From an uncultured Gammaproteobacteria bacterium (GTDB lineage Bacteria > Pseudomonadota > Gammaproteobacteria > Steroidobacterales > CAZJFQ01), in assembly GCA_964545335.1 (NCBI GenBank), contig CAZJFQ010000001.1, forward strand, positions 1,766 through 65,765: a stretch of 64,000 nt of DNA. Direction: 5' to 3'. Made by a program: the position numbers and the translations under genes. A model generated the notes under the pieces. That model did not search any database, was not told where the DNA came from, and worked only from the letters and a program-made list of their open reading frames with translations. This document shows, piece by piece, positions 8,523 to 22,228 of the stretch (positions within the stretch are counted from its first letter, which is position 1; every line of letters starts with the position of its first letter).

Positions 8523-9365
8523 TTGAGTCCATCGCAACCGATCGACGGCGCGACGCGCGGCTTCATCGCGGCCATCGGCGGCGGGGAAGAAAAATTTGAT
8601 GACCCCGAGATCCTGCATCGATTTGTCAATCTGTGCGGCGGCGAGCCCGCGCGTATTGCTGTCATCCCGACAGCCTCCGAGCTGAATGACAGCGGCCGAC
8701 ATTACGAGAAGCTGTTTCGAACGATCGGCGCCAATCATGTACGGGTACTGGGTTTTTACTCCCGTTCCGACTGCGAGAACGAGAAGTACCTCAACTACCT
8801 GGCCAAGGCCGACGGAGCATTTATGACCGGTGGCAATCAGTTGCGTCTCTCGACTACGCTCGGTGGCACGCCGGTGGCTCAACTGTTACGGCGCCGAAAT
8901 ATGCAGGGCATGCATATCGCAGGAACCTCCGCCGGCGCGGCATTTATGCCGGAGCACATGATTGCAGGCGGTATCGAGGGCAGCACCCCGCGCCCCGAGC
9001 TGGTGACGATGGCGCCGGGACTCGGTTTGACCAATCGCATTGTTGTCGATCAGCACTTTCGAGAACGGGATCGGTTGGGACGGCTACTCACCGCGCTGGC
9101 TTACAACCCCTTTGCGGTGGGCATTGGTCTGGATGAAAACACTGCCGCTTTTATAGCACCGGATGATACTCTAGACGTGATGGGTACCGGCGGACTGACA
9201 ATCGTCGATCCCTCGGAGATTGAATTCTCCTCGATGGACTCGGCCCAGCGTGGGGAACCGGTTAGTCTGATCGGAGTGCGATTACACATCCTGGTCTCCG
9301 GCGGACACTACGACCTCGTCACACGCGAGGCCAGCCATCGAGCAGAACGAATAGCGACAACATAA
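8523..9365 (+). CDS. cphB: Cyanophycinase (peptidase S51), no signal peptide
   Basis: IGGGEE start region and nucleophile motif IAGTSAGAAFM. TTG start at 8523 with GGGAGG 8 nt upstream. The N-terminus is not signal-like, so it resembles the intracellular CphB type. Confidence 0.88.
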   Translation: MSPSQPIDGATRGFIAAIGGGEEKFDDPEILHRFVNLCGGEPARIAVIPTASELNDSGRHYEKLFRTIGANHVRVLGFYSRSDCENEKYLNYLAKADGAFMTGGNQLRLSTTLGGTPVAQLLRRRNMQGMHIAGTSAGAAFMPEHMIAGGIEGSTPRPELVTMAPGLGLTNRIVVDQHFRERDRLGRLLTALAYNPFAVGIGLDENTAAFIAPDDTLDVMGTGGLTIVDPSEIEFSSMDSAQRGEPVSLIGVRLHILVSGGHYDLVTREASHRAERIATT

Positions 9366-9389
9366 AGACCCCTGTTAAGGGGCATATTG

Positions 9390-12179
9390 ATGAAAATCCT
9401 GTCGACAAATGTATTTGTGGGCCCGAATATCTATGCTCGGTTTCCGGTAATCCGTCACGTGCTGGATCTTGGTGAACTGGAAGCCTGGCCAACGGGCCGA
9501 CTGGGTCCCGACTTTACTGACCCACTGCTCGAGGCTTTGCCGGGCCTTTACAAACATGGCTGTTCATATGGTACAGCCGGCGGCTTTGTGCGGCGTCTCA
9601 AGGAGGAAGAAGGCACCTGGCTGGGCCATGTCATGGAGCACGTTGCCATCGAGCTGCAATGCGCGGCCGGCTCCGATGTTACCTTCGGCAAGACACGGTC
9701 GACCGGCAAGCCCGGCGAATACAACCTGATCTTTCAGTACAAGGATGAAGAGGTCGGTCGTGAAGCCGGCCGCCTCGCTCTGGATTTTCTGCATCATCTG
9801 TTGCCGTCTGAACTCAAGCCGGCCGATGCGCCGGCAGCCGAATGGGATTTCACGGCAGAACGGGATAAGTTTATCCGCTATGCGCAGCGTCGGGCCCTGG
9901 GGCCGAGCACGGCCTCACTCGCCCGCGCCGCGGAAGATCGCTCGATACCGTGGATACGATTGAATCGTTACAGCCTATTGCAGTTCGGGCACGGCAAATA
10001 TCAGCAACGCATTCAGGCGACAACCACCAGCCAGACCAGCAACATTGCCGTCGATCTGGCGTCCGACAAGGAAGAAACCAATCGCATACTGACCGACCTC
10101 GGTCTGCCGGTACCGCGGCAGCGGTTGGTTTACAGCGCAAGGGAAGCGGTGAGAGCAGCCGAAAGGATTGGCTATCCCGTAGTCTTGAAGCCCATCGCGG
10201 CCAATCACGGCCGCGGCGTATCTACCAACCTCCGCGTGCCGGAGGAAATTGAAACCGCGTTTGCGAAAGCACGCGAGCATGCCCGGACTGTACTGGTTGA
10301 GAGTTTTATCGAAGGATTTGATCACCGGATACTGGTGACCAACGGCGAAATGATCGCGGCGGCAAAACGCATTCCCGGTCACGTCGTCGGTGACGGCAAA
10401 CTGACCATTGAACAACTTGTAGATGAGGTCAACCGCGATCCGCGACGTGGTGTCGGACATGAGAAAGTACTGACACGTCTGGAGTTTGATCACCAGGCCG
10501 AGAAACTCCTGCAACTGAATGGCTACAGCCGCGATACCGTTCCGCGCACCGACGATATAGTCTATTTGCGAAGAACTGCGAATTTGTCTACTGGTGGTAC
10601 GGCGATCGACGTCACGGACATTGTCCACCCCGACAACCGCGAAATGGCTATACGCGCCGTTCGCGGACTGGGACTGGACATCGGTGGCGTCGATTTCCTT
10701 ACCACGGATATTGCCGAATCCTACCGGGACACCGGTGGTGCGATCTGCGAGGTGAACGCCGGACCCGGCTTTCGCATGCACGTCGCGCCAAGCGAAGGAC
10801 AGCCCCGCGACGTGGCTGGTCCGGTACTCGACATGCTATTTCCCCCGGGCACGCCCAGCACAATTCCGACGGCATGCATTACCGGTACCAACGGCAAGAC
10901 GACCACTGCACGCATGCTGGCCCACATCATGAAGCTGGCTGGTTATACAGTGGGCTTGTCCAGCACTGACGGGGTCTATATCGATGGTCACCTTTCAGTA
11001 GAAGGCGACATGACCGGACCGATGGCGACCAATATGATACTCCGCGACCCGACCGTCGACGCCGCCGTTCTGGAAACTGCACGCGGCGGCATGCTCCGAC
11101 GCGGCATGGGCATAGCCCATTGCGACGTTGCAGCCTGTATCAATGTTTCGGCCGATCATCTCGGTTTGCATGGAATCCATACGGTCGAACAGCTTGCCGA
11201 AGTCAAACGCATTCCAATAGAGATCGCGCAGGACTCGGTCGTGCTCAATGCGGATGACGTCAACTGTCTGAAAATGGCGGATTACGCCGAGGCTGAACAC
11301 GTTTGTTACATCAGTATGAATCCGGGTCATACATTGGTGAAACAACATATTCAATCGGGAGGCCGGGCTGTAGTACTGGAAGAAGGCTACAACGGTTATA
11401 TGATCACGATTTACGACAGTGGCAACCACATCCCGCTGCTGTGGACCCACCTTATCCCCGCAACGCTGGAAGGACGTGCGCTGCATAACGTGCAAAATGC
11501 AATGTTCGCGGCAGCGCTCGCTTACAGCCTCCACGTCAGTCTGGAAAATATACGGCATGGTCTGAGGACCTTTGACACCACATTCTTCCAGGCGCCGGGA
11601 CGGATGAACGTCTTTTCAGAGCACCCGTTCAAGGTCATTCTCGACTATGCCCACAATCCGGCAGCGGTCCAAACCATGTGCGACGTTGTTGACCGGCTGG
11701 ACGAGCCCGGGCGAAAGATTCTCGTATTGTCGGCGCCCGGAGATCGCCGGGATGAGGACATTCTCAAAATCGGCAGTCTGGCTGCCTGCCATTTTGATCA
11801 CTATGTCTGTCGCGGCGACGATAATCCGCGCGGCCGCCAACCTGAGGAAGTCCCGCGCATGCTGGCCGACGCCCTGATTGCCGGCGGTGTCGAAAAATCG
11901 CACATCGAAGTCATTGCCGACGAACAGGAAGCCGTCGACAGCGCACTGAGAGCAGCAGAATCGGGCGACCTGGTGCTCATCTTTGGTGACAACATAAAAC
12001 GCTGCTGGAAGCAGATCATCTATTTTGATGCACACAAACCAATGGCGGGCGCGCGTGAGGTAAGAAAAGAACGTATCGCACCCGCGGAAGACTATGGTTT
12101 CAAAATGGATGAGGACGTTACCCTGATTCGCGATGAACGGGGCGTACGTATCGCCCGCGGACCCGAGCAGGACGACTGA
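9390..12179 (+). CDS. cphA: Cyanophycin synthetase CphA (N domain + ATP-grasp + Mur-ligase-like domain)
   Basis: MKILSTNVFVGPNIY N-domain start, ATP-grasp core (GYPVVLKPIAANHGRGV), Mur-type P-loop ITGTNGKTTTARM, and DYAHNPAA. About 929 aa. Confidence 0.93.
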   Translation: MKILSTNVFVGPNIYARFPVIRHVLDLGELEAWPTGRLGPDFTDPLLEALPGLYKHGCSYGTAGGFVRRLKEEEGTWLGHVMEHVAIELQCAAGSDVTFGKTRSTGKPGEYNLIFQYKDEEVGREAGRLALDFLHHLLPSELKPADAPAAEWDFTAERDKFIRYAQRRALGPSTASLARAAEDRSIPWIRLNRYSLLQFGHGKYQQRIQATTTSQTSNIAVDLASDKEETNRILTDLGLPVPRQRLVYSAREAVRAAERIGYPVVLKPIAANHGRGVSTNLRVPEEIETAFAKAREHARTVLVESFIEGFDHRILVTNGEMIAAAKRIPGHVVGDGKLTIEQLVDEVNRDPRRGVGHEKVLTRLEFDHQAEKLLQLNGYSRDTVPRTDDIVYLRRTANLSTGGTAIDVTDIVHPDNREMAIRAVRGLGLDIGGVDFLTTDIAESYRDTGGAICEVNAGPGFRMHVAPSEGQPRDVAGPVLDMLFPPGTPSTIPTACITGTNGKTTTARMLAHIMKLAGYTVGLSSTDGVYIDGHLSVEGDMTGPMATNMILRDPTVDAAVLETARGGMLRRGMGIAHCDVAACINVSADHLGLHGIHTVEQLAEVKRIPIEIAQDSVVLNADDVNCLKMADYAEAEHVCYISMNPGHTLVKQHIQSGGRAVVLEEGYNGYMITIYDSGNHIPLLWTHLIPATLEGRALHNVQNAMFAAALAYSLHVSLENIRHGLRTFDTTFFQAPGRMNVFSEHPFKVILDYAHNPAAVQTMCDVVDRLDEPGRKILVLSAPGDRRDEDILKIGSLAACHFDHYVCRGDDNPRGRQPEEVPRMLADALIAGGVEKSHIEVIADEQEAVDSALRAAESGDLVLIFGDNIKRCWKQIIYFDAHKPMAGAREVRKERIAPAEDYGFKMDEDVTLIRDERGVRIARGPEQDD

Positions 12180-12197
12180 CAATCCGGCGAGAGCAGG

Positions 12198-13883
12198 ATG
12201 GAACTGATCGACTCCCGCCGTCTCACCGGCCCGAATATCGTCTGGGATCATCCGGGCGCCGTCATCGACATTCGTTTCGGTGACAACGAGCCTGACGAAG
12301 TTATCGATACCTGGAAGCAACAGCTAGGCCGCATGCTGAAAGCGGTCGGCTGGGATGCACTGGAAGTAGCGGTACATCGGGTCCCTGGTGGAGCCAGTCT
12401 CGTTTTTGCCGCACCCATTGATGCGCTGTATGCCGGGACTGACATCAATGACTGGGCCTGGCAAGCCACCTGCAAAAAAATCCAATCCGGAAACGATGTC
12501 GATCCCGGCCCGGATGCAGCACGCCTGAAAGACACAATTACCGAGGAACGGAATCCGCAGCTACAGGCACTGAGAGCTGCCGCGGAAACACGCGACAAAG
12601 TCTTTCTCAGCGATGATGACGACGTCTCGATCGGGCTCGGCTGCAACAGTCTGACTTTCCCGGTCACAGACATTCCATCTGCCGAAGACATCACCTGGGA
12701 TTCGATTGCTGCCATCCCGGTGGGCCTGGTGACGGGCACCAATGGCAAGACGACTTCAGTACGGCTGGCCGCGTCAATCGCCCGTGCAGCCGGACACCGC
12801 GCTGGACTGAGCTCGACGGACTGGATCGCCGTTGACGGGGACATCATCGATCGTGGTGATTATTCTGGCCCCGGAGGAGCGCGCACTATTCTTCGCGACC
12901 GACGTGTCACGCTTGCGATCCTGGAGACGGCGCGTGGTGGCTTGCTCCGCCGCGGCCTCGCGATCAATTATGCGGATGCCGCTCTGATTACCAATATTGC
13001 CGAAGATCACCTCGGCGATTTCGGTGTTCAGGACCTGGAGCAGCTGGCTGACGTCAAGTGGATCGTGACGCGTGCGCTGGGACCTGCCGGCTATGCGATC
13101 CTGAATGCTGAGGATCCGCGACTCGTCGTACGTGCCACACGAAGTTCGGGCTTTAAACTGCTCTGGTTCAGTACTGATCCGGACAACCCGACACTGCGGG
13201 ATCACGTGAACCGGGATGGCTGGGGATTGACGGTAGAGAATCACCAGCTGCTCTGGTATCGCGACGGAAATGCGGCAAAGCTCATCGATGTCCGTGAAAT
13301 CCCGGTTACTTTGCGGGGAGCAGCACGGCACAATGTTGCCAACGCCCTGGGCGCCGCCGGATTGATGCTGGCATTGGGTGTCGACCCTGATGCCGTGATC
13401 TCGGGTCTGACCGGTTTGCTTCCGGAGGACAACCCCGGGCGCTGCAATCTGTATCACATTGGCGACGTCGATGTACTGGTGGACTTTGCGCACAATCCGC
13501 ATGGGATGGCGGCGTTGTTCGAATTGGCGCGCGAGTACCCGGCGAACCGACGTCTGCTCATCATCGGCCAGGCGGGTGACAGGAGCGACGAGGCGATACG
13601 CGAGCTGACGAGATCGGCGTGGAGTATCGGTATCGACCACGTAATCATCAAGGAGATGGCACAGTACGCCCGCGGTCGCCAGCGCGGCGAGATCCCGGCG
13701 CTGATACGCGGCGAGTTCCTCAAACTCGGTGCCGCTGAAGACAGCATCGGCTATCAGGAACACGAAATGGATGCGGTAAAGAAATCACTGGACATGGCCG
13801 GCAAAGGCGATCTCGTTATCATGCTGATCCACGAGAACATGGATGCCGTGACGGATTATCTCCGGTCCCGGAAAGATGCCTGA
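12198..13883 (+). CDS. CphA-like Mur-ligase-family protein lacking the ATP-grasp domain (CphA'/CphA2-like)
   Basis: The N-terminus echoes the CphA N domain (RRLTGPNIVW vs NVFVGPNIYA) and then runs straight into the Mur-ligase module (VTGTNGKTTSVRL, ETARGG, DFAHNPHG). No ATP-grasp segment. The stop overlaps the darP start by 8 nt. Confidence 0.85.
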   Translation: MELIDSRRLTGPNIVWDHPGAVIDIRFGDNEPDEVIDTWKQQLGRMLKAVGWDALEVAVHRVPGGASLVFAAPIDALYAGTDINDWAWQATCKKIQSGNDVDPGPDAARLKDTITEERNPQLQALRAAAETRDKVFLSDDDDVSIGLGCNSLTFPVTDIPSAEDITWDSIAAIPVGLVTGTNGKTTSVRLAASIARAAGHRAGLSSTDWIAVDGDIIDRGDYSGPGGARTILRDRRVTLAILETARGGLLRRGLAINYADAALITNIAEDHLGDFGVQDLEQLADVKWIVTRALGPAGYAILNAEDPRLVVRATRSSGFKLLWFSTDPDNPTLRDHVNRDGWGLTVENHQLLWYRDGNAAKLIDVREIPVTLRGAARHNVANALGAAGLMLALGVDPDAVISGLTGLLPEDNPGRCNLYHIGDVDVLVDFAHNPHGMAALFELAREYPANRRLLIIGQAGDRSDEAIRELTRSAWSIGIDHVIIKEMAQYARGRQRGEIPALIRGEFLKLGAAEDSIGYQEHEMDAVKKSLDMAGKGDLVIMLIHENMDAVTDYLRSRKDA

Positions 13884-14407: not shown

Positions 14408-14896
14408 ATGACAGCACAAGTTGGCATATTGATGGGATCGAAATCGGACTGGGAGACGATGTCAAATACGACAACCACACTCGATGAGTTGGGCATAGAA
14501 TATGAAGTTCGGGTTGCTTCCGCACACCGCACGCCTGCGGCGGTGGTCGAATACACGAACTCAGCCCGGGAGCGCGGTCTCAAGGTCATCATCGCTGCTG
14601 CGGGCGGAGCCGCGCACCTCGCCGGTGTTGTGGCTGCGCATACTACCTTGCCGGTGCTCGGTGTGCCTATCGAATCGCCGGCATTGAAGGGACTCGACTC
14701 ACTTTTGTCGACAGTTCAGATGCCCGCCGGCATCCCCGTCGCAACGCTGGCCATTGGGCGCGCCGGGGCCGTCAATGCGGCAATGTTTGCAGCCGCGATA
14801 ATCGGCGTGACTGATATTTCTGTCAGCGAAGCGATTGCGGCGCATCGTCGGGACAAGGCTGAGGCCATACTTGCGAATCCCGACCCCAGAGACTGA
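14408..14896 (+). CDS. purE: N5-carboxyaminoimidazole ribonucleotide mutase
   Basis: Motifs MGSKSDWETM, ASAHRTP, AAGGAAHLAGV. 162 aa. Confidence 0.95.
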   Translation: MTAQVGILMGSKSDWETMSNTTTTLDELGIEYEVRVASAHRTPAAVVEYTNSARERGLKVIIAAAGGAAHLAGVVAAHTTLPVLGVPIESPALKGLDSLLSTVQMPAGIPVATLAIGRAGAVNAAMFAAAIIGVTDISVSEAIAAHRRDKAEAILANPDPRD

Positions 14897-15057
14897 ATGC
14901 CTGGTTAGCGGGAGGTCCGGCAGCGTCCGCGTATGTTGATGTCGGTCAGGCAAACCCTATGCGCTCCCGGTTCGCCGGTCGGCTTGCTTACGGGCCCGGA
15001 AGGCCGGGCGCCGACAGCCTCCCGAGTTTAAAGCCGCCATGGAACCGGTGATTTTCC

Positions 15058-15083
15058 CGCCGAGTGGGGTCCGGCGTTTTTTT
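15058..15083 (+). terminator. Candidate rho-independent terminator ~160 nt downstream of purE
   Basis: CGCCG-(9 nt)-CGGCG followed by seven T. The stem is only 5 bp, so support is moderate. Confidence 0.4.
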
Positions 15084-15281
15084 GTGGTGGCATTGCTTGT
15101 CATAATCAAGGTGATCTGAGTGGCCGGTCATGGCACACTCCCATGCGCGGCCGAATAACAAAATGATAACTGCTTCTTTCTACTCCGAAGGTTCTTACGC
15201 TTAATATGTAGCGTCGATCGGGAATCGGTAATTGATTTACCGACCGTCGCCTGTCCGCTAACAGGATCTATCAGGTTCAAC

Positions 15282-16469
15282 GTGTATCTCGAGCATTTCA
15301 AGCTTAAGGATCACCCGTTCCGGCTCAGCCCGGACCCGAATTACTTGTTTCTCAGCAAACAGCACTCGCGGGCCAAGGCATACATCGAGTCAACGGTCTG
15401 GTTTGCCGACGGATTTGTCATCATCACCGGAGAGATCGGGTCCGGGAAGACGATCCTGCTCGAGCGATTCCTTACGGAATTGCCTGATGATGTGATTACC
15501 GCTCGTATCGCTCAGACACAGATCACGCCCACCCAGTTGCTCCAGATACTGCTCGCGGAATTCGGGTTCAAGCCGTTTCGCAAGCGCAAAGCGGAACTTC
15601 TGAATATGCTGAGTGAGTACCTGTCCGAGCGGTCCCGCAGCGGTCGAAAGGTCGTCATCATCATTGATGAAGCGCAAAATCTGACGCCCCGGGTACTGGA
15701 AGAGATACGGTTGATATCCGGCATTGAAGGCCATAAGAATAAGGTACTGAGCATCATCCTGGCGGGTCAGCCAGAACTCAACGAAGCTCTCGATGCACAG
15801 AATATGCGCCAGTTGACACAACGAACGCGGCTGCGTTTTCACCTCGGCCCGTTGTCCGAGGATGAAGTTCGTGAGTACGTCCGGCACCGGCTGGATGTTG
15901 CGGGTGCGCGCGGTCGCAAAATCTTCAAAAAGGCAGCATTCGATCCGATCTACAAGTACACCGGCGGAATCCCCAGGCTGATCAACACGTTATGTGACAC
16001 CGCGCTGATCGGTGCCTTTGCTGATGACGTCCAGACGGTAACCGATCAGGACATCCGCAACGCCGTGGATGAACTGCAGTGGGTCGAATACGCCGAGACG
16101 ACCAGCCGCCAGCGCACGATGAAGCAAGCCGAGGTCGGGGCCGACAGTGACGCAGATGGCCGGTTGGCGGTGCTGTCGATCGCCCAGAACGGACAAATGA
16201 CTATGGAATTCACACTCGGCCAGGGCCGGGTCATTATCGGTCGGACATCCGACAACGACTTGCAGATCGACAGCAAATACATCAGTCGCCATCACGCGCA
16301 GATAGTTTCCAAACCCAGGTATTGTGTGCTGGAGGATCTCAACAGCACAAACGGGATCTATGTACGATCACAACGCGTGAAAAAGCACCGTCTGCGTGAT
16401 GGCGACGTGATCATGATCGGGAAACACGAACTGCGGTATTCAAATCAGCGCCTGTCCGGCAACGACTGA
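15282..16469 (+). CDS. ExeA/GspA/MshM-type AAA+ ATPase fused to a C-terminal FHA domain
   Basis: N-terminus HFKLKDHPFRLSPDPNYLF, Walker A GEIGSGKT, Walker B VVIIIDEAQNL, GGIPRLIN. The C-terminal ~95 aa carry FHA signatures (IIGRTSDNDLQI, SRHHAQI, NSTNGIYV). GTG start. Confidence 0.85.
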   Translation: MYLEHFKLKDHPFRLSPDPNYLFLSKQHSRAKAYIESTVWFADGFVIITGEIGSGKTILLERFLTELPDDVITARIAQTQITPTQLLQILLAEFGFKPFRKRKAELLNMLSEYLSERSRSGRKVVIIIDEAQNLTPRVLEEIRLISGIEGHKNKVLSIILAGQPELNEALDAQNMRQLTQRTRLRFHLGPLSEDEVREYVRHRLDVAGARGRKIFKKAAFDPIYKYTGGIPRLINTLCDTALIGAFADDVQTVTDQDIRNAVDELQWVEYAETTSRQRTMKQAEVGADSDADGRLAVLSIAQNGQMTMEFTLGQGRVIIGRTSDNDLQIDSKYISRHHAQIVSKPRYCVLEDLNSTNGIYVRSQRVKKHRLRDGDVIMIGKHELRYSNQRLSGND

Positions 16470-16501
16470 GCCCGGTCTCTGCATACGGGCAACGCAGGAG
16501 A

Positions 16502-16768
16502 TCAACCGAGGTCGCTATCGGCTCTCGACACCTGAGCGGGGCCTGATACTCGTCCCGCCTCCGGCTGCTGGGACGACTGTCGAAAACCCCGCCGTTTCAG
16601 CCACACCACTAAACCTGCTACCAGGCAGCCAAACCCCGCCACAACAGCGACATACGTCCAGGGCCAGAAATCCGGAAACAATGCAGCACCAAGGCAAATG
16701 AGCCCGGCGACAATGTAGTAGTACGGCAGGGACTCGTACACTGGTTTTGGCAGCCAGAATGGCCTCAT
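16502..16768 (-). CDS. Hypothetical small membrane protein (2 TM)
   Basis: Two hydrophobic helices (YYYIVAGLICLGAALF, YVAVVAGFGCLVAGLVVWL) followed by a basic/polar tail. Confidence 0.55.
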   Translation of the reverse strand: MRPFWLPKPVYESLPYYYIVAGLICLGAALFPDFWPWTYVAVVAGFGCLVAGLVVWLKRRGFRQSSQQPEAGRVSGPAQVSRADSDLG

Positions 16769-16997
16769 ACGTTGATCCTCAGCAGCAAATCAGGATTGGG
16801 CCGGCAATCGTAACCGTTCACTGCTCTATTGTGCCGTGCATCCAGTCACAGATGAACCGGCAAACGCGGTCCGGTGGATGACTTTGTGATGTGGTTCACA
16901 GTTTTTGCTCTTGCCGGGCCAAAGGCGGTCACCAAATGGCAATTCCTTGATTCAGTCCATAAAAAAAATTCGACATCTGCATACACTAGGAACCACT

Positions 16998-17921
16998 ATG
17001 AGCGGGTTTCTAGGGCGATTGTTGCGCGCAGCGGGCCGGCTTGCCGGCTCTGCCATGCCGTTGTTTCTTGCCTGCGACCGGGTGCTGGCAAGGAACCTAT
17101 CGGATCCCGTGTTTTCCTGGGACGCCTTCGGTGTCGCATACGCGTATTTCATCGCTTGCGTCGTGCTAGCCGGCCTGCTCTATATGTTCTTTCGCTGGCA
17201 GATCGTCCTCAACCCCGGCGCGATTACGCGTCGATATGCTGTCGCCGTTCAGCTGATCGGCCTGCTCTACGTGATTGCGTCGATCCTGGAGAATGCGATC
17301 TCCGGCAACGGCACGTCCAGCCTGCCGTATGAATCACTGCCGTTAATTGGATTTGTCATCATCGTCCATTATCTTGCGGACCGCGAAGAGCAACCGGCGG
17401 TCCTTATTTTTGCCTTTTCTCTGGTCATCGCGATCATGGCGGTCGGTTTCGTGGCCTTGAGCATGGGCTGGGTTGAAATCCGCCCCGGGCAATGGGTCAT
17501 CGGGGCAGTCGGCGCCGGAATGGTCGGCTACACACTGGCCCAAACCACCCGGACAAAGAAGTCGTACATCAGCAGGGCCGCGGTCGAGCGCAAAGTCTCG
17601 ATGAAACGCGCTATCCCCGGTGTGCGTGCGTGGTTATCGGTGGAACAGTGGGTGGCACTTGCGGTGGCCAGCCTGGTGGTCGCCGCGGTCACGCAGACGC
17701 TGGCCGGCAGATCCCTGCTGTCGGTGCCCGCGAGCAGAATTTTCTATCACATGGTCGTACTGCTCGGGGGGACGCTGATTATCGGACTGCTCTACTCCGG
17801 CCTGCATTGGCTGCTGAGCCGACGATCAGCTGGCGAGCTGGCCTGGGTTCTGTGGATGGTCTGGATACTGATCGCTTTCGCGTCCACATACGGCATGTTT
17901 CTGGTCGGCCGTTCGGTCTGA
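16998..17921 (+). CDS. Hypothetical polytopic inner membrane protein
   Basis: About 8 hydrophobic segments. The ATG at 16998 is preceded by AGGA. The track start at 16905 is TTG and hydrophilic. Confidence 0.6.
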   Translation: MSGFLGRLLRAAGRLAGSAMPLFLACDRVLARNLSDPVFSWDAFGVAYAYFIACVVLAGLLYMFFRWQIVLNPGAITRRYAVAVQLIGLLYVIASILENAISGNGTSSLPYESLPLIGFVIIVHYLADREEQPAVLIFAFSLVIAIMAVGFVALSMGWVEIRPGQWVIGAVGAGMVGYTLAQTTRTKKSYISRAAVERKVSMKRAIPGVRAWLSVEQWVALAVASLVVAAVTQTLAGRSLLSVPASRIFYHMVVLLGGTLIIGLLYSGLHWLLSRRSAGELAWVLWMVWILIAFASTYGMFLVGRSV

Positions 17922-17927
17922 ATCGAA

Positions 17928-18215
17928 TCAGTCGCCGCGCCGTCGGCGATTCCTGTCGTAGTACTCCCGGATAGCGCTGTCGAGCGACGTGCAAGCCTCG
18001 TCGACACCGCGTGTCTGCGCCAGGACGAACAGAGCGTCCTGCAGGTCATCCGGAAAGTCAGCTATAGACATTGCGAACTCCTGCACACCGTCACCGGACA
18101 GATGGGCAGCGGAGTCGTTGGGCCGCAGCAGCAGCAGCGGATCCTTGAGGACCAGGGCTTTCCAGACCTCGTAAGGGTCCCAGCGCACGCGGGTGTCAGC
18201 AGGTTTCTCGCTCAT
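17928..18215 (-). CDS. Hypothetical small acidic protein
   Basis: ORF with an internal ATG (MSEKPADT...). No motif recognised. The C-terminus is Arg-rich. Confidence 0.45.
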   Translation of the reverse strand: MSEKPADTRVRWDPYEVWKALVLKDPLLLLRPNDSAAHLSGDGVQEFAMSIADFPDDLQDALFVLAQTRGVDEACTSLDSAIREYYDRNRRRRGD

Positions 18216-18363
18216 CGTATAACGTGATTTGACCGTGTCAGACTCTATTCTTAGTCGATTTTCGCCACAGTGCCGTGAAGAGTCTCGCACTTTCGACAGC
18301 CGGTGAACCAGAAGCCCCGGGGACCGTGCGGCCCCCGGGCGCGATCGGATCCTGCATCCGGGG

Positions 18364-18870
18364 TCAGGGCATGATCACCGGAGTATCACCGCAATCGTCG
18401 CCGGAACCGCCCGACGCGCCATTGCCCGGATCATCATCGCCGGGATCATCTGCACCGGGTCGCGTAAAGTGGACGCCGGCCTGAAACGTCCCGCTGCGCT
18501 CGGTACCCCAGGCCGTTATGGCCTCGTACTCCACGTCGCCGTCGAGACCAAGCGCATTCCCAAGATCCGGTTCACGGGAGAAGGCCGCAAGTACCCAGTC
18601 ATTCTCACCACCGGAAGACCCGAGAACCTGATAGTTAACCCAGCCCGGGATAACTCCGTATATCAGCGTGGCACCTGGATGATGCTCGTTGAAATGATCC
18701 AGCGCTTCGCGGACAAAAGCCATCGGACGGTTTTCCGGATCCGCGCAGGTGCCACACTCGATGGTGTAATCGATAGGGCTGAGCGGATCGGACAACGCGA
18801 GTGGGGCTGCTCCCTCGAGAAAGAGCATCAATAGGGCATAAAGCCAGACTTTCCTTTGTTTGGATTCCAT
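18364..18870 (-). CDS. Hypothetical secreted protein with Asp/Gly/Pro-rich C-terminal tail
   Basis: Signal-peptide-like N-terminus (KVWLYALLMLFLEGAAPLALS) and a low-complexity tail (PGADDPGDDDPGNGASGGSGDDCGD). Confidence 0.6.
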   Translation of the reverse strand: MESKQRKVWLYALLMLFLEGAAPLALSDPLSPIDYTIECGTCADPENRPMAFVREALDHFNEHHPGATLIYGVIPGWVNYQVLGSSGGENDWVLAAFSREPDLGNALGLDGDVEYEAITAWGTERSGTFQAGVHFTRPGADDPGDDDPGNGASGGSGDDCGDTPVIMP

Positions 18871-19017
18871 GGCAGAACCTCCTTGTTCTGTCGGGTTGTT
18901 GTATCAGCAGTGGCTGGCCCTGGCGGAATCCACCTGGACATCCACTAATGGTCTAATACTACCATATATGGCATACTTGGCAAGATTCCAAATGAGCCCA
19001 CTGTCTGAGGATTCCCG

Positions 19018-19818
19018 ATGTTCCGATCCGTACTCATCGCTCTGATTCTTGGTCTGGCAGCCGTAGCAACAACGCTGAGCACTGTCGGATTTTTTGGATG
19101 GCAACCGGATGCAGCAGCAAACTCTCAACGCAGTCCGAATGAAGAAAGCAGTGACACCCTGTCGCAACAGCTGCAGCAGTTCAGCGCACTGCTCCGGTCG
19201 GTTGCAAAGGATGGGGCAACAAGCGACCAGTCAACTCCGGTGTCACAAGGCAGAGTCCCGACTGACGACCATGTAAAGAGGGATAACCATTGGGGAAATA
19301 CGACCGAGACCACCCTGCCCGATGGCCGTAAAGCACGAGTTGACCGTATTACCGGCGAGATTGTCAGTTGGGATGCCAGAACGCCGGAAGAAGCAAAGCG
19401 CTTTGGCTTCGACTTCGATTTTCGGCGCAGCGACTATGCCACGTATGGTCTTGTTACTCTCGAGCAACTCGCTGACGGCGGCGATTACATCGCGATGATG
19501 TATGTTGCAGAAGTTCGCGCTCGGGAACGAGATTATGACGCGGCCAAGCGTCTGTGGCTAACGTCGGCAACGATTTCGGGCCAGACCCGGGGGCTCGCCA
19601 ACGCTGCGGCTCATTTCTTCTCCCGACGCAACTACTACGACAGCCTGGTGTTTTCTGAACTGGCCGTCCGCCTGGGCGATAACCTGACCTATAACTTTGG
19701 CGCGTCGGCCAAAAGACTGATGTCGCAGGAAGACGTCGAGGCAGCAGAGCAAGACGCTGATCGGATTTTTAAATCGATGCTGACGGGACGCCGTTTGCGT
19801 ATCGGTGAGGGGTTCTGA
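19018..19818 (+). CDS. Hypothetical membrane-anchored/periplasmic protein
   Basis: N-terminal hydrophobic anchor (VLIALILGLAAVATTL). The C-terminal half is helical with a weak Sel1/TPR-like flavour. Confidence 0.6.
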   Translation: MFRSVLIALILGLAAVATTLSTVGFFGWQPDAAANSQRSPNEESSDTLSQQLQQFSALLRSVAKDGATSDQSTPVSQGRVPTDDHVKRDNHWGNTTETTLPDGRKARVDRITGEIVSWDARTPEEAKRFGFDFDFRRSDYATYGLVTLEQLADGGDYIAMMYVAEVRARERDYDAAKRLWLTSATISGQTRGLANAAAHFFSRRNYYDSLVFSELAVRLGDNLTYNFGASAKRLMSQEDVEAAEQDADRIFKSMLTGRRLRIGEGF

Positions 19819-19856
19819 ACTTTTTTTAGTTACATCATGAGACGATCACAGGAAGC

Positions 19857-20108
19857 ATGACCATGTTGCCTTTTAATATTCGGTTTCTGGTAACAGCCGG
19901 TGTAACCGGCATCTACAGTTGGGCCGCAGCTTTGGCACTAAAACTGTCCCTGAATTCGGGCCTACCGGACTGGAGCCAGAAAATCACCTTGCTGGTTTTG
20001 CTGCCTGGTTTTCTCATCGCACCATTTCTTGCCTGGCGATGGATCTCCCGGCAACGCTATGGCCCACACGATGGTCCAACCGATGCGAAAGATCCCCTGA
20101 GAGGCTAG
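19857..20108 (+). CDS. Hypothetical small membrane protein (2-3 TM)
   Basis: Hydrophobic ORF 38 nt downstream of the previous gene on the same strand. Confidence 0.5.
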   Translation: MTMLPFNIRFLVTAGVTGIYSWAAALALKLSLNSGLPDWSQKITLLVLLPGFLIAPFLAWRWISRQRYGPHDGPTDAKDPLRG

Positions 20109-20116
20109 ATTGCGGC

Positions 20117-20671
20117 TCAGCGAATAACGTTGTTGACGCCGGAAGAGGACGGTCGCGGCGCAGGGAGCGACGTTGACACAGACCGTATCGGTAACCTGCC
20201 GGATCCGGACCGGGACATACCGGTCAGCGGTGAACTGGTGCGCGACCGGCTGCTGTAGCTGGTCGCGGAACGACGACTGGGGTCTGCCGGGGCTATGTCA
20301 CCGTCTTCGCCCAGCCGCGGAGTGCGGGGGTTATCGTCGGGTTCCGAAGTTTCCGGTGGCTCATGCGGAACCACCTCCGCGGGGGGCGGAGGATAGTACA
20401 CCGGCGGGTGATAAGCACCGTGCATACCCCCAGCAGCTCCATAGAAAGGCATGGAAGGGCTGTAGTTGGCGCCGTCATCAAATAAACCGGCGCCCTGCGC
20501 GGGCAGGGCAGTGCCGGCCGTTTGGGTACTGTAGCCGTAAGGCAGGAGACCCAGATCGTCTACCGGGCCTGCAAACGGATTCTGGGCACAGCCGACCGCA
20601 AACGCCGCTGCCAGAAGCGCCAGCGCTGCAATCATGCGCTGCAATCCGGGTTGTCGCTCAGTTGACTTCAT
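20117..20671 (-). CDS. Hypothetical lipoprotein, Pro-rich centre and Ser/Arg-rich tail
   Basis: Lipobox-like LLAAAFAVGC, then YHPPVYYPPPPAEVVPHEPPE, then an S/R-rich C-terminus. Confidence 0.6.
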   Translation of the reverse strand: MKSTERQPGLQRMIAALALLAAAFAVGCAQNPFAGPVDDLGLLPYGYSTQTAGTALPAQGAGLFDDGANYSPSMPFYGAAGGMHGAYHPPVYYPPPPAEVVPHEPPETSEPDDNPRTPRLGEDGDIAPADPSRRSATSYSSRSRTSSPLTGMSRSGSGRLPIRSVSTSLPAPRPSSSGVNNVIR

Positions 20672-20785: not shown

Positions 20786-22228
20786 CTACGACGTCCCGCC
20801 CACGGTCAGGCTGTCAATGCGCAGCGTCGGCTGACCCACACCGACGGGTATCGTTTGTCCTTCCTTGCCGCAAACACCGACACCTGTATCGAGTTTGAGA
20901 TCGTTACCGACCATCGAAACCCGCGTCAGCACGTCCGGGCCGTTTCCAATTAGAGTTGCACCTTTTACGGGACGGGTAATGCGACCTTTTTCGATCAAAT
21001 AGGCCTCACTGGTTGTAAAAACAAACTTGCCCGAAGTGATATCGACCTGGCCGCCGCCAAAATGACTCGCGTACAGGCCGCGGTCCACGGAACGGATGAT
21101 CTCCTCCGGGTCGTGCGGACCGGGGAGCATATAAGTATTGGTCATTCTTGGCATGGGCAGATGGGCGAAGGACTCACGGCGGCCGTTGCCCGTGGGCGCC
21201 ATGCCCATAAGTCGGGCATTGAGCTTGTCCTGCATATAGCCTTTGAGAATTCCGTGCTCGATCAGTGTCGTGCAACTTGTTGGTGTGCCTTCGTCATCAA
21301 TATTCAGCGATCCCCGTCTTGCATCGATGGTGCCATCGTCAACCACAGTACAAAGCTCTGACGCCACCTTTTCTCCGAGCCGGCCACTGAAAGCAGAAGT
21401 CTGTTTACGATTGAAGTCACCTTCCAGACCGTGACCGACAGCCTCGTGCAACAAGACCCCGGGCCACCCCGGGCCGAGTACGACTATCATGTTGCCGGCC
21501 GGCGACGGGTCGGCATCGAGATTGACCAGGGCTTGTCGTACGGCTTCCCGTGCATACTCGAGCGCCTTGGCGTCTTCAACAAAGTACTCGTAGCCTACGC
21601 GTCCACCACCGCCGGCAAATCCTTGTTCGCGCCGGCCATCCTGCTCGGCAATAACGGACACGTTGAGTCGAACAAGCGGTCGAATATCGGCGCTGAATGT
21701 GCCGTCTGCGGCTGCGATCAGGATGACTTCGTGAACTCCGGACAGATTCACGACTACTTCCTGCACACGGCTGTCGATACGGCGCGCTTCGGCATCAACC
21801 GTTTCCAGCAGGGCGACTTTCTTGTCATCGTCCAGTGATTCCACCGGATCAATCGGTTGATAAAGCTCGTGACCATCCGACCTGCGCCAGGCCTGCAGTT
21901 GCCCGTGGCTTCCGCGGCGCGCGATAGCACGCGCCGCTCGAGACGCGTGCTCAAGCGCGGGCAGCGCGATCTCGTCGGAGTATGCGAATCCGGTTTTTTC
22001 GCCGCTGATCGCCCGCACACCCACGCCTTGTTCAATGCTGTGGGTACCTTCCTTTACAATCCGGTCTTCAAGTGACCAGGATTCATGCCGGCTGAATTGA
22101 AAGTACAGCTCCGCGTCATCGATTGCGTGACCCATGATGCGGCCCAGCACGCCGGACAGGTGGTGCTCATCGAGACCGGCACGATCAAGTATCCGATTGC
22201 GCGCTATTTCGATATTTTTGTCAGTCAT
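20786..22228 (-). CDS. tldD: Metalloprotease TldD
   Basis: TldD/PmbA family with the zinc motif [14 protein letters not shown]. 480 aa. Confidence 0.95.

Follow-up and report, generated by a model that had tools for sequence, protein, structure and literature searches.

A soluble AAA+ ATPase with an FHA domain, conserved across the Steroidobacterales, may substitute for the ATPase that the order's XrtA-type exopolysaccharide loci lack

Introduction

ATPases of the ExeA type are poorly understood helpers of envelope machines. GspA/ExeA, together with GspB/ExeB, is an accessory ATPase of the type II secretion system (T2SS) that binds peptidoglycan and aids secretin assembly in Aeromonas and Vibrio, and the locus for the MSHA type IV pilus of Vibrio encodes MshM, a cytoplasmic ATPase that resembles ExeA. 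The DNA analysed here, a stretch of 64,000 nucleotides from an uncultured gammaproteobacterium of the order Steroidobacterales (hereafter the window), encodes an ATPase of this type that ends in an FHA domain (AAA-FHA). What does such a protein do, and which machine does it serve? An earlier note on the window had read it as an orphan fusion in which an FHA domain replaces the transmembrane (TM) and peptidoglycan-binding half of ExeA. In the literature searched, nothing was found on the combination of an ExeA/GspA-type (AAA_22) ATPase with FHA, nor any experimental work on a member of the family.

Results

Domain architecture of AAA-FHA

AAA-FHA is a soluble two-domain protein in which an AAA+ P-loop ATPase and a canonical FHA domain are joined by a disordered linker of ~30 residues (Table 1). 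The open reading frame starts with GTG, and this start is backed by a database protein of 395 aa with 99% identity. Pfam AAA_22 matched aa 43-170 (nt 15408-15791) with an E value of 5e-27, and Pfam FHA (PF00498) matched aa 317-380 with an E value of 2e-20 and 73.6 bits against a cut-off of 20.7. Both matches bear out the two-domain call of the earlier note, as do the conserved motifs; those that it had quoted (GEIGSGKT, VVIIIDE, SRHH and NSTNG) were all present and invariant in homologues. The GGIPRLIN motif lies at aa 228-235, and the FHA motif residues are G320-R321, S335-R-H-H338 and N354-S-T-N-G358. The ATPase and FHA motifs were all invariant among the 34 to 121 homologues compared. No membrane span was found in the protein, whose largest Kyte-Doolittle mean over 19 residues was 1.07, in agreement with the earlier remark that it has no hydrophobic segment. 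By the same measure, the GspA paralogue of this genome peaks at 2.14 near residue 278.

The FHA domain was modelled with a pLDDT of ~77 to 90, and its comparison with solved phosphothreonine-binding FHA domains (FhaA, GarA and OdhI) gave target-normalised TM scores of 0.83 to 0.92 and RMSDs of 1.4 to 2.3 Å (Foldseek, rows 4 to 13 of the match list). The FHA domains of FhaA (Rv0020c), GarA/OdhI, FhaB/FipA (Rv0019c), EmbR, Rv1747 and DgcB are 26 to 33% identical to that of AAA-FHA and share its GR, SxxH and NG residues. The canonical phosphothreonine-contact residues (G320-R321, S335/H338 and N357-G358) were invariant in 121 homologues, and a phospho-dependent mode of action is plausible for AAA-FHA because its FHA domain keeps every one of them. 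The effector is different, however: in the known FHA regulators it is an inhibitor peptide, a transcription factor, an ABC transporter or a GGDEF domain, whereas in AAA-FHA it is an AAA+ ATPase.

Table 1. Features of the AAA-FHA locus, in positions of the window
Feature	Position	Strand	Evidence and remarks
purE, conserved upstream neighbour	14408..14896	+	Pfam AIRC; 385-nt gap between purE and AAA-FHA here
AAA-FHA gene, 395-aa soluble AAA_22 (ExeA/TIGR03015-like) ATPase with C-terminal FHA	15282..16469	+	ORF/translation, Pfam and NCBIfam
ATPase domain, aa 2-266	15285..16079	+	TIGR03015 alignment aa 2-266, 290.9 bits; AAA_22; tree grouping with EPS-locus ATPases
Walker A GEIGSGKT, aa 50-57	15429..15452	+	G50, G53, G55, K56 and T57 invariant, n=34 homologues
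Walker B VVIIIDE, aa 124-130	15651..15671	+	D129 and E130 invariant
Variable low-confidence linker, aa 269-294	16086..16163	+	pLDDT <50 at aa 271-291; ETTS at aa 272-275 (nt 16095-16106)
FHA domain, aa 295-388	16164..16445	+	Pfam core aa 317-380 (nt 16230-16421); invariant phosphothreonine-contact residues; Foldseek
Convergent small 2-TM protein, 88 aa	16502..16768	-	Motifs PxYExLPYxY ... LRRRDYR; adjoins AAA-FHA in 74/80 loci; alignments
Six-gene insertion, membrane/secreted proteins without annotation	16905..20671		Confined to nearest relatives; outside the conserved unit
tldD, conserved downstream anchor	20786..22228	-	Pfam PmbA_TldD; synteny block tldD, CN-hydrolase, yhdP, rng

Distribution and genomic context

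The database search scored 7,965 homologues, and the best 120 listed were all full length and FHA-bearing. Relatives are encoded in at least 565 species genomes, the AAA+FHA architecture was present in 73 of the best 150 clusters at 50% identity, and ~19 of 300 genomes in a sample of the class had a full-length match. The family is large. In the order Steroidobacterales (Steroidobacteraceae, Woeseiaceae and Povalibacter) it is a conserved core gene, and among other Gammaproteobacteria it is scattered sporadically. With these numbers and a syntenic place throughout the order, the fusion can no longer be called an orphan. Steroidobacteraceae and Woeseiaceae are major groups in soil and sediment. 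Cultured carriers of the gene include Povalibacter uvarum DSM 26723 and Steroidobacter species.

A survey of 80 Steroidobacterales genomes showed a fixed order of purE-purK, AAA-FHA, a convergent small gene for a protein with two TM segments (2-TM) and tldD. Of the 80 loci, 75 had purE and 76 had purK upstream; downstream, the 2-TM gene followed in 74, and tldD lay beyond it in 60. AAA-FHA is probably co-transcribed with purEK in the order, because the gap between purK and AAA-FHA has a median of only ~31 bp. In the present genome purK is missing between purE and AAA-FHA, and it had no match anywhere in this 87.6%-complete metagenome-assembled genome (MAG). Scanning positions 14850-16950 for promoters and terminators gave no signal exceeding shuffle expectation.

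The gene had also been said to head an islet of envelope proteins, which the relatives' loci do not bear out. In the typical Steroidobacterales order the 2-TM gene is directly followed by tldD, without islet genes, and the islet is an insertion of the nearest relatives; six of its seven genes occur only in the closest relative (L004, 75% identical), two of them also in L001. Pfam and NCBIfam searches of the six insertion genes gave no match. In none of the neighbourhoods examined did the orthologue lie among annotated genes for secretion or pili, the situation that the earlier note had named as a refutation of its reading.

Relationship of the ATPase domain to XrtA-type ATPases, GspA/ExeA and MshM

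The ATPase domains were placed in a quick IQ-TREE phylogeny with SH-aLRT support. One split with a support of 100 separated the GspA/TM clade from a group of 55 of the 59 FHA proteins together with the ATPases of exopolysaccharide (EPS) loci, and AAA-FHA lay on the side of the latter, outside the GspA clade. The occurrence of FHA on this tree requires at least six gains or losses. AAA-FHA was 49 to 51% identical to ATPases encoded within EPS loci (L053 and L054), as opposed to 41 to 42% to the genome's own GspA. By these sequence comparisons, the nearest relatives of its ATPase domain are the short cytoplasmic ATPases found in XrtA/PEP-CTERM EPS loci and not GspA/ExeA.

The XrtA/PEP-CTERM ATPase (TIGR03015) aligns end to end with the ATPase domain, falls on the same side of the split and is likewise soluble. 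AAA-FHA differs from it in having the extra linker and FHA domain and in being encoded beside purE(K), outside the EPS locus. The TIGR03015 score of AAA-FHA (Table 1) is under the curated cut-off of 324.5 bits, which is also true of the gammaproteobacterial in-locus ATPases examined, and the scores of in-locus ATPases from three XrtA-type loci (269 to 294 bits), of AAA-FHA proteins (291 to 303 bits) and of GspA (286 bits) overlap. The cut-off was dropped as a membership test, the three kinds of protein being inseparable by score.

AAA-FHA shares the AAA_22 fold with GspA/ExeA, as well as the motifs FRLSPDP, GEIGSGKT, DEAQNL, GQPEL and GG(I/V)PRLIN. However, it has no TM segment, no C39-like (PF21327) or PG_binding_1 (PF01471) match and no adjacent gspB/exeB, its neighbours being purE and the 2-TM gene. 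The paralogue encoded on contig C21 has both domains; it is a complete GspA (AAA_22, C39-like and PG_binding_1), and its gene is followed by a T2SSB (GspB) gene. MshM resembles AAA-FHA in being a soluble ExeA-type ATPase without a periplasmic half, but AAA-FHA adds the FHA domain and has no pilus genes nearby.

These comparisons bear on the account in which AAA-FHA is a GspA/ExeA that exchanged its TM and peptidoglycan-binding half for an FHA domain and that works with the envelope proteins of the islet. The ExeA-type motifs and the envelope-protein genes downstream in the window would fit it, but the protein groups with short EPS-locus ATPases that never had such a half to replace, an intact GspA-GspB pair is kept elsewhere in the genome, and the islet is a lineage-specific insertion missing from the typical arrangement in the 80 orthologous loci. 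We regard this account as extremely improbable; it is already contradicted by the synteny, the relatives' loci and the ATPase-domain tree, and the reading as an orphan fusion at the head of an envelope islet is largely explained away.

The ATPase part of the structural model was only moderate (pLDDT 71.6 and pTM 0.39). The only solved structures that it matched were the MuB filament (8xvb), TnsC (7rzy) and Cdc6/Orc1 (2qby), of which 8xvb was found with an E value of 2e-6 by sequence and recovered again with Foldseek. These nearest solved structures are all ATP-dependent oligomerising switches. The matches were weak, at the superfamily level only (~18 to 19% identity, TM scores of 0.24 to 0.37), and neither PDB search returned a solved ExeA-type ATPase domain, hence no closer match was possible. 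The restriction of the matches to these proteins speaks for an ATPase acting on DNA or the nucleoid like MuB, TnsC/TniB or Cdc6/Orc1, with FHA tying its activity to kinase signalling. We consider such a role very unlikely, as the closest sequence relatives are the EPS-locus and T2SS accessory ATPases and no transposase or replication genes were found near AAA-FHA.

The ATPase slot of Steroidobacterales XrtA-type loci

The genome has its own XrtA-type locus on contig C24, and the AAA-FHA gene lies on contig C1. The genes on C24 are ordered TIGR03013 GT, PrsK, PrsR, export (TIGR03027), chain-length determinant (TIGR03007), Tyr autokinase (TIGR03018), OMP (TIGR03016), a 95-bp gap, deacetylase (TIGR03006) and FemAB, with more genes beyond. 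In the two canonical loci aligned, L053 and L059, the ATPase gene is located between the OMP and deacetylase genes, just upstream of the latter, and its immediate upstream neighbour in L053 is a beta-barrel gene. The corresponding slot on C24, between the OMP and deacetylase genes, holds no ATPase gene. An exosortase (PF09721) was not found in this incomplete MAG.

Among 33 Steroidobacterales genomes, the only ExeA-like genes were AAA-FHA and GspA, except that a minority had one or two additional copies. The chain-length determinant scored over the cut-off in 21 of them, and in none of these 21 was an ExeA-like gene present on the same contig, a complementarity that is not statistically independent because the 21 loci go back to a single evolutionary event. 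Of five loci of the order that were inspected, four had no ATPase gene and too little space to hold one between the Tyr-kinase/OMP genes and the deacetylase gene, and the fifth (G238) was rearranged and likewise without an ATPase match. The chain-length determinant was also present in 8 of 16 distant AAA-FHA genomes, and the in-locus ATPase was missing from the XrtA-type locus in five of these eight; G116 and G104 have both the in-locus ATPase and the AAA-FHA gene. AAA-FHA may thus stand in for the ATPase missing from the XrtA/PEP-CTERM gene cluster of the Steroidobacterales.

The link to XrtA is not obligate, because 5 of the 33 Steroidobacterales genomes are without any chain-length-determinant match yet keep the AAA-FHA gene, in which it differs from the in-locus TIGR03015 ATPase. 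An exosortase was found in about half of the AAA-FHA genomes of the class sample compared with a background of 31%, an enrichment that is weak at best. In G104 and G287, AAA-FHA and VWA-FHA genes are clustered with genes for TPR proteins, and an XrtA locus lies ~12 kb away with pyruvate dehydrogenase genes between. The TPR proteins are not PrsT, and this cluster was dropped as a link to XrtA.

AAA-FHA might instead be a phosphothreonine-controlled assembly ATPase for another cytoplasmic-membrane process that is unrelated to XrtA, and the 2-TM protein may then be its membrane dock, as the TM segment/GspB is for GspA. Retention of the gene in Steroidobacterales without the chain-length determinant and in class members without an exosortase would agree with this, as would its widely differing contexts outside the order, where it is found with an ABC-2 transporter, with metH/gshA or with the VWA-FHA and TPR proteins. 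The 2-TM gene is adjacent in nearly all of the surveyed genomes (Table 1), and its cytoplasmic motifs are conserved. However, profile searches found members of the 2-TM family that have no AAA-FHA gene beside them, one of them a second copy in the present genome, and did not show the pairing outside the Steroidobacterales. We therefore rejected the 2-TM protein as an obligate partner. Its adjacency may be inherited synteny, because the gene also occurs away from any AAA-FHA gene. Furthermore, the two genes are convergent, which excludes co-transcription, no Thr is conserved in the 2-TM protein, and a client other than XrtA leaves the absence of the ATPase from the XrtA loci of this order unexplained. 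On balance we judge this account unlikely.

Kinase signalling and the linker

The earlier note had reported no Hanks kinase or PP2C phosphatase in the window. This held, and contig C1, to which the window belongs, contained no Hanks kinase, secretin or second FHA domain; outside the window, the genome encodes seven Hanks kinases and one kinase-PP2C-FHA operon. At least one Hanks kinase was present in all ~19 AAA-FHA genomes of the class sample, versus 235 of 300 genomes (78%) overall, and this co-occurrence is weak support for a link to kinase signalling.

The linker may itself carry a phosphorylation site. An [RT]T motif follows the ATPase domain in ~60% of the homologues and reads ETTS in the present protein, which we take to match the acceptor motif of GarA/OdhI. 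Lying outside the FHA domain, this Thr-rich motif is similar to the tails through which GarA/OdhI and DgcB bind to themselves. At position 274, 53 of 121 homologues have Thr and 40 have Pro, the latter forming a large subclade with an RPHHH linker.

From these sequence features, AAA-FHA could be a self-contained phospho-switch, in which a Hanks kinase would phosphorylate the linker Thr (ETTS) and the FHA domain would bind it either in cis, with autoinhibition of the GarA/OdhI or DgcB kind, or in trans, giving head-to-tail oligomers, and would so gate the ATP-dependent oligomerisation. The position of the Thr-rich motif, right after the ATPase domain and within the disordered linker, is consistent with this mechanism, as is the presence of the self-binding GarA, OdhI and DgcB among the closest solved FHA domains. 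Such a switch could not be universal in the family, however, because Thr274 is replaced by Pro in a third or so of the homologues compared. It is compatible with an XrtA as well as with another client, and we consider it possible, if doubtful.

Discussion

We propose that AAA-FHA is a phosphothreonine-controlled assembly ATPase, possibly serving an XrtA-type EPS system in trans, a reading for which we see the case as evenly balanced. AAA-FHA would be an ATP-dependent oligomerising switch or assembly factor, and Hanks-type Ser/Thr kinase signalling would set its recruitment or activity. The FHA domain would dock on a phosphothreonine of a partner, or on its own Thr-rich linker as in GarA/OdhI. 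The most probable client would be the XrtA-type EPS export machinery, served in trans, and this is the weakest step of the proposal.

More tentatively, we suggest an evolutionary account that we find conceivable rather than probable. On separate occasions, in the Steroidobacterales and in a few further lineages of the Gammaproteobacteria, the XrtA ATPase may have left its locus, become fused to FHA and settled as the last gene of the purEK operon, so that the export of EPS and PEP-CTERM proteins, and with it floc and biofilm formation, would be gated by Hanks-type Ser/Thr kinases via an assembly ATPase recruited by phosphothreonine. No experimental account of the function of TIGR03015 ATPases was found in the literature searched, and the founding paper on PEP-CTERM/EpsH mentions no ATPase. 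If true, this account would give the first functional handle on the TIGR03015 ATPase and on eukaryote-like kinases in exosortase systems.

The FHA-bearing variant of the ExeA-type ATPases is abundant in soil and sediment Gammaproteobacteria, and its single chromosomal position across a whole order speaks for a genuine role, probably an important one. Should AAA-FHA be coupled to Hanks kinases by its FHA domain, the protein would be a compact case of an assembly ATPase under phosphothreonine control. Should it serve the XrtA system, Ser/Thr signalling would be tied to the formation of exopolysaccharide and flocs, with relevance for biofilms and activated sludge.

Domain architecture of the AAA-FHA protein

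The AAA-FHA gene has a GTG start codon and a product of 395 aa. Pfam searches matched AAA_22 at residues 43-170 (E 5e-27) and FHA at residues 317-380 (E 2e-20; 73.6 bits versus a cut-off of 20.7), and every motif quoted in the earlier note was present, which bears out its call of an ExeA-type ATPase with an FHA domain. The best NCBIfam match was TIGR03015, the family of XrtA/PEP-CTERM system-associated ATPases (residues 2-266; 290.9 bits, below the cut-off of 324.5), and the C-terminus was also matched by FhaB/FipA-, OdhI- and TagH-type FHA models. The ATPase motifs (Walker A G50-T57, Walker B D129-E130, GQPEL 162-166 and GG-PRL-N 228-235) and the FHA residues G320-R321, S335-R-H-H338 and N354-S-T-N-G358 were invariant in the 34 to 121 homologues compared. 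The protein showed no membrane span, as had been claimed: its maximum 19-residue hydropathy was 1.07, versus 2.14 in the canonical GspA of the genome.

The AlphaFold2 model had a mean pLDDT of 71.6 and a pTM of 0.39, with pLDDT below 50 in the linker (residues 271-291) and about 77-90 in the FHA part. The modelled FHA part could be matched to the solved phosphothreonine-binding FhaA, GarA and OdhI (target TM 0.83-0.92, rmsd 1.4-2.3 Å). The ATPase part matched only MuB, TnsC and Cdc6/Orc1, at the superfamily level; a DNA-associated role is a less likely reading of the protein. Judged from its sequence, the AAA-FHA protein is a soluble AAA+ ATPase of the ExeA/TIGR03015 type with a functional-looking FHA domain.

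Relationship to GspA and to ATPases of exopolysaccharide loci

In the canonical GspA (contig C21, 554 aa), AAA_22 is joined to a TM span, a C39-like domain and PG_binding_1, and its gene is followed by one for GspB. The AAA-FHA protein is soluble and ends in FHA; the genome has two secretins. A tree built from 128 ATPase domains (quick IQ-TREE with SH-aLRT support) contained a split with a support of 100 between the TM-bearing GspA clade, including the genome's own GspA, and the group with most FHA proteins. Short FHA-less ATPases grouped with 55 of the 59 FHA-bearing proteins, and the clade with the window's protein (support 97) comprised 23 sequences, 20 with FHA. Three FHA-less relatives taken from genomes (46-51% identical) were all located in XrtA/PEP-CTERM-type exopolysaccharide (EPS) loci, in the order export protein, chain-length determinant, Tyr autokinase and then ATPase. 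In two loci from other genomes, L053 and L059, a gene intervenes between Tyr autokinase and ATPase (for a beta-barrel protein in L053), and a deacetylase gene follows the ATPase. These XrtA-locus ATPases are short and lack FHA, whereas the AAA-FHA proteins of the same tree group carry it.

The location of the FHA-less tree neighbours in XrtA-type loci argues that the FHA domain was added onto a soluble EPS-type ATPase and that no TM/peptidoglycan-binding half was replaced; the earlier idea of such a swap is thus abandoned. To explain where FHA is present, the tree needs six or more changes, and therefore several gains or losses. TIGR03015 scores overlapped and did not discriminate (in-locus ATPases 269-294 bits, AAA-FHA 291-303, GspA 286).

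Size and distribution of the family

The fusion had been described as an orphan. It is instead a member of a large, conserved and uncharacterised family: among 5.8 billion proteins searched, 7,965 scored as homologues, and the best 120 were all full length with an FHA domain, with identities of 55-62% save four closer relatives at 75-99%. Among 1.84 billion 50%-identity representatives, 9,064 matched at E <= 1e-30; ATPase and FHA occurred together in 73 of the top 150 clusters (59 complete), with identity down to about 33%. Some variants had very long linkers; four representatives (P0131, P0135, P0138 and P0153; 931-1,197 aa) have the same N-terminal ATPase and C-terminal FHA, with 600-800 residues of unknown content between. 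With each species represented by a single genome, at least 565 genomes encoded a relative; the best 80 came from Steroidobacteraceae, Woeseiaceae, Steroidobacter and the cultured Povalibacter uvarum DSM 26723. Within the class, 300 evenly sampled genomes gave a full-length match in about 19, from at least 14 families. Database annotations were generic ('AAA family ATPase' or 'general secretion pathway protein A'), and literature searches found no paper on the ExeA-type ATPase and FHA architecture.

Genomic context

The typical order in 80 Steroidobacterales loci was brkB, pmbA(-), darP, purE, purK, AAA-FHA, the convergent 2-TM gene, tldD(-), CN-hydrolase(-), yhdP(-) and rng(-), with purK upstream in 76, purE upstream in 75, the 2-TM gene after AAA-FHA in 74 and tldD in 60. 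Since the median gap between purK and AAA-FHA was about 31 bp, the gene is likely co-transcribed with purEK in most genomes. The window departs from this order at three places. First, cyanophycin genes are inserted between pmbA and darP; they are common to the relatives L001 and L004 and not to most Steroidobacterales. Secondly, purK is absent after purE (14408-15281), with a 385-nt non-coding gap instead, and from the whole MAG by tblastn. The third place is a six-gene insertion encoding a multi-TM protein of 338 aa, an acidic protein of 120 aa, a secreted protein of 168 aa, a signal-anchored protein of 266 aa, a 2-TM protein of 83 aa and a Pro-rich lipoprotein of 184 aa, none with a Pfam or NCBIfam match. 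These six genes were confined to the 75%-identical relative L004, and two of them were also found in L001. As they occur only in the closest relatives, AAA-FHA does not head an islet of envelope proteins, contrary to the earlier note; the comparison suggests a recent insertion beside a conserved AAA-FHA/2-TM pair in a conserved syntenic block.

Coordinates of the AAA-FHA gene and of related features
Feature	Location	Strand	Remarks
Cyanophycinase gene, cphA, second Mur-ligase-type cphA-like gene	window 8523-13883		between pmbA and darP
AAA-FHA gene	window 15282-16469	+	
2-TM protein gene	window 16502-16768	-	88 aa; PxYExLPYxY, two helices, LRRRDYR
Six-gene insertion	window 16905-20671		between 2-TM gene and tldD; unannotatable membrane or secreted proteins
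Second 2-TM copy	own genome C100:711-986	-	
XrtA/PEP-CTERM EPS locus	own genome C24:9785-31979 (L163, L164)		outside window
Kinase-PP2C-FHA operon	own genome C29:16194-18838 (L165:6194-8838)		between radA and alr-dnaB
Second EPS locus, Povalibacter uvarum (G307)	C1:124663-127994		non-XrtA-type
Second EPS locus, G306	C4:2127043-2130443		non-XrtA-type
Second EPS locus, G312	C13:300372-303750		non-XrtA-type
Distant AAA-FHA cluster	L050:7998-16021		also L051 (genomes G104, G287)

The 2-TM proteins form a real family of 65-95 aa, with the N- and C-terminal motifs listed in the table, in several gammaproteobacterial families; no Pfam or NCBIfam model covers it. A rival explanation is that the AAA-FHA protein serves a different membrane process and docks on the 2-TM neighbour. 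Because family members, including the second copy in this genome, also occur away from any AAA-FHA gene, the adjacency may be inherited synteny.

Contexts outside Steroidobacterales varied: a convergent ABC-2 transporter together with dus and pepA, metH/gshA plus additional small FHA proteins, or a VWA-FHA protein beside TPR proteins. In G104 and G287, a distant AAA-FHA gene (about 40% identity) has a GGDEF gene upstream and is directly followed by genes for a VWA+FHA protein, a 187-aa unknown protein and two large TPR proteins. In G287, an XrtA-type locus lies about 12 kb from this cluster and has no ATPase within it.

The XrtA-type locus and its missing ATPase gene

The EPS locus on C24 encodes, in order, a TIGR03013 glycosyltransferase, PrsK, PrsR, a TIGR03027 export protein, a TIGR03007 chain-length determinant, a TIGR03018 Tyr autokinase and a TIGR03016 outer-membrane protein (OMP), followed after a 95-bp gap by a TIGR03006 deacetylase, TIGR03019 FemAB, stp1, stp2, a TIGR03108 amidotransferase, a flippase, glycosyltransferases and a TIGR03097 O-ligase-like protein. 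No ATPase occupies the OMP-deacetylase slot, where the canonical loci examined (L053, L059) carry one, and the genome has no ExeA-like genes besides AAA-FHA and gspA.

All 33 Steroidobacterales genomes had an AAA-FHA gene, and nearly all a GspA-type gene. None of the 21 with a chain-length determinant over the cut-off had an ExeA-like gene on the determinant's contig. In four of the five loci inspected, the stretch from the Tyr-kinase/OMP genes to the deacetylase gene contained no ATPase and left no space for one; the remaining locus (G238) was rearranged, likewise without an ATPase match. Among other Gammaproteobacteria, an ExeA-like gene lay no more than about 15 kb from the exosortase in at least 21 genomes. 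For the eight AAA-FHA genomes from outside Steroidobacterales that have an XrtA-type locus, the in-locus ATPase was absent in five, present in two (G116, G104) and uncalled in one. G307, G306 and G312, which also carry AAA-FHA and GspA, have a second EPS locus with a chain-length-determinant-like gene (roughly 600 aa) and then a short ExeA-like ATPase (about 297 aa).

The pattern of empty slots fits the AAA-FHA protein being a displaced, FHA-equipped ATPase of the XrtA system. However, the Steroidobacterales loci represent one evolutionary event, and 5 of the 33 genomes lack a chain-length-determinant match and still keep AAA-FHA. Furthermore, in the class sample about half of the genomes with AAA-FHA lack an exosortase, and none (PF09721) was detected in the C24 locus or anywhere in this 87.6%-complete MAG. 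The XrtA-type EPS machinery is the best candidate client, although a tentative and rather doubtful one.

Phosphorylation and the proposed mechanism

The earlier note had seen no Hanks kinase or PP2C phosphatase in the window. This stands for kinases on the window's contig; genome-wide, there are seven Hanks-type kinases and seven FHA domains. The operon on C29 encodes a soluble Hanks kinase of 311 aa, a PP2C phosphatase of 274 aa and an FHA protein of 289 aa; the FHA domain of the last is the closest paralogue of that of the AAA-FHA protein (40% identity). In the class sample, every one of the roughly 19 genomes with AAA-FHA had at least one Hanks kinase, which is weak support because 235 of all 300 genomes have one.

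The linker starts W-V-E-Y-A-E-T-T-S. ETTS corresponds to the phospho-acceptor motif in GarA/OdhI, where the protein then docks onto its own FHA domain. Among 121 homologues, residue 274 is Thr in 53 and Pro in 40, which makes a cis or trans pThr-FHA switch plausible for the clade of the window's protein, not family-wide. A self-contained linker-pThr switch is a further rival explanation, one compatible with either client model.

Most likely, the AAA-FHA protein would act as an ATP-dependent oligomerising assembly factor, and Hanks-kinase phosphorylation, read by the FHA domain, would set its recruitment or activity. This abundant, unstudied family now offers a concrete hypothesis that is testable in cultured strains.
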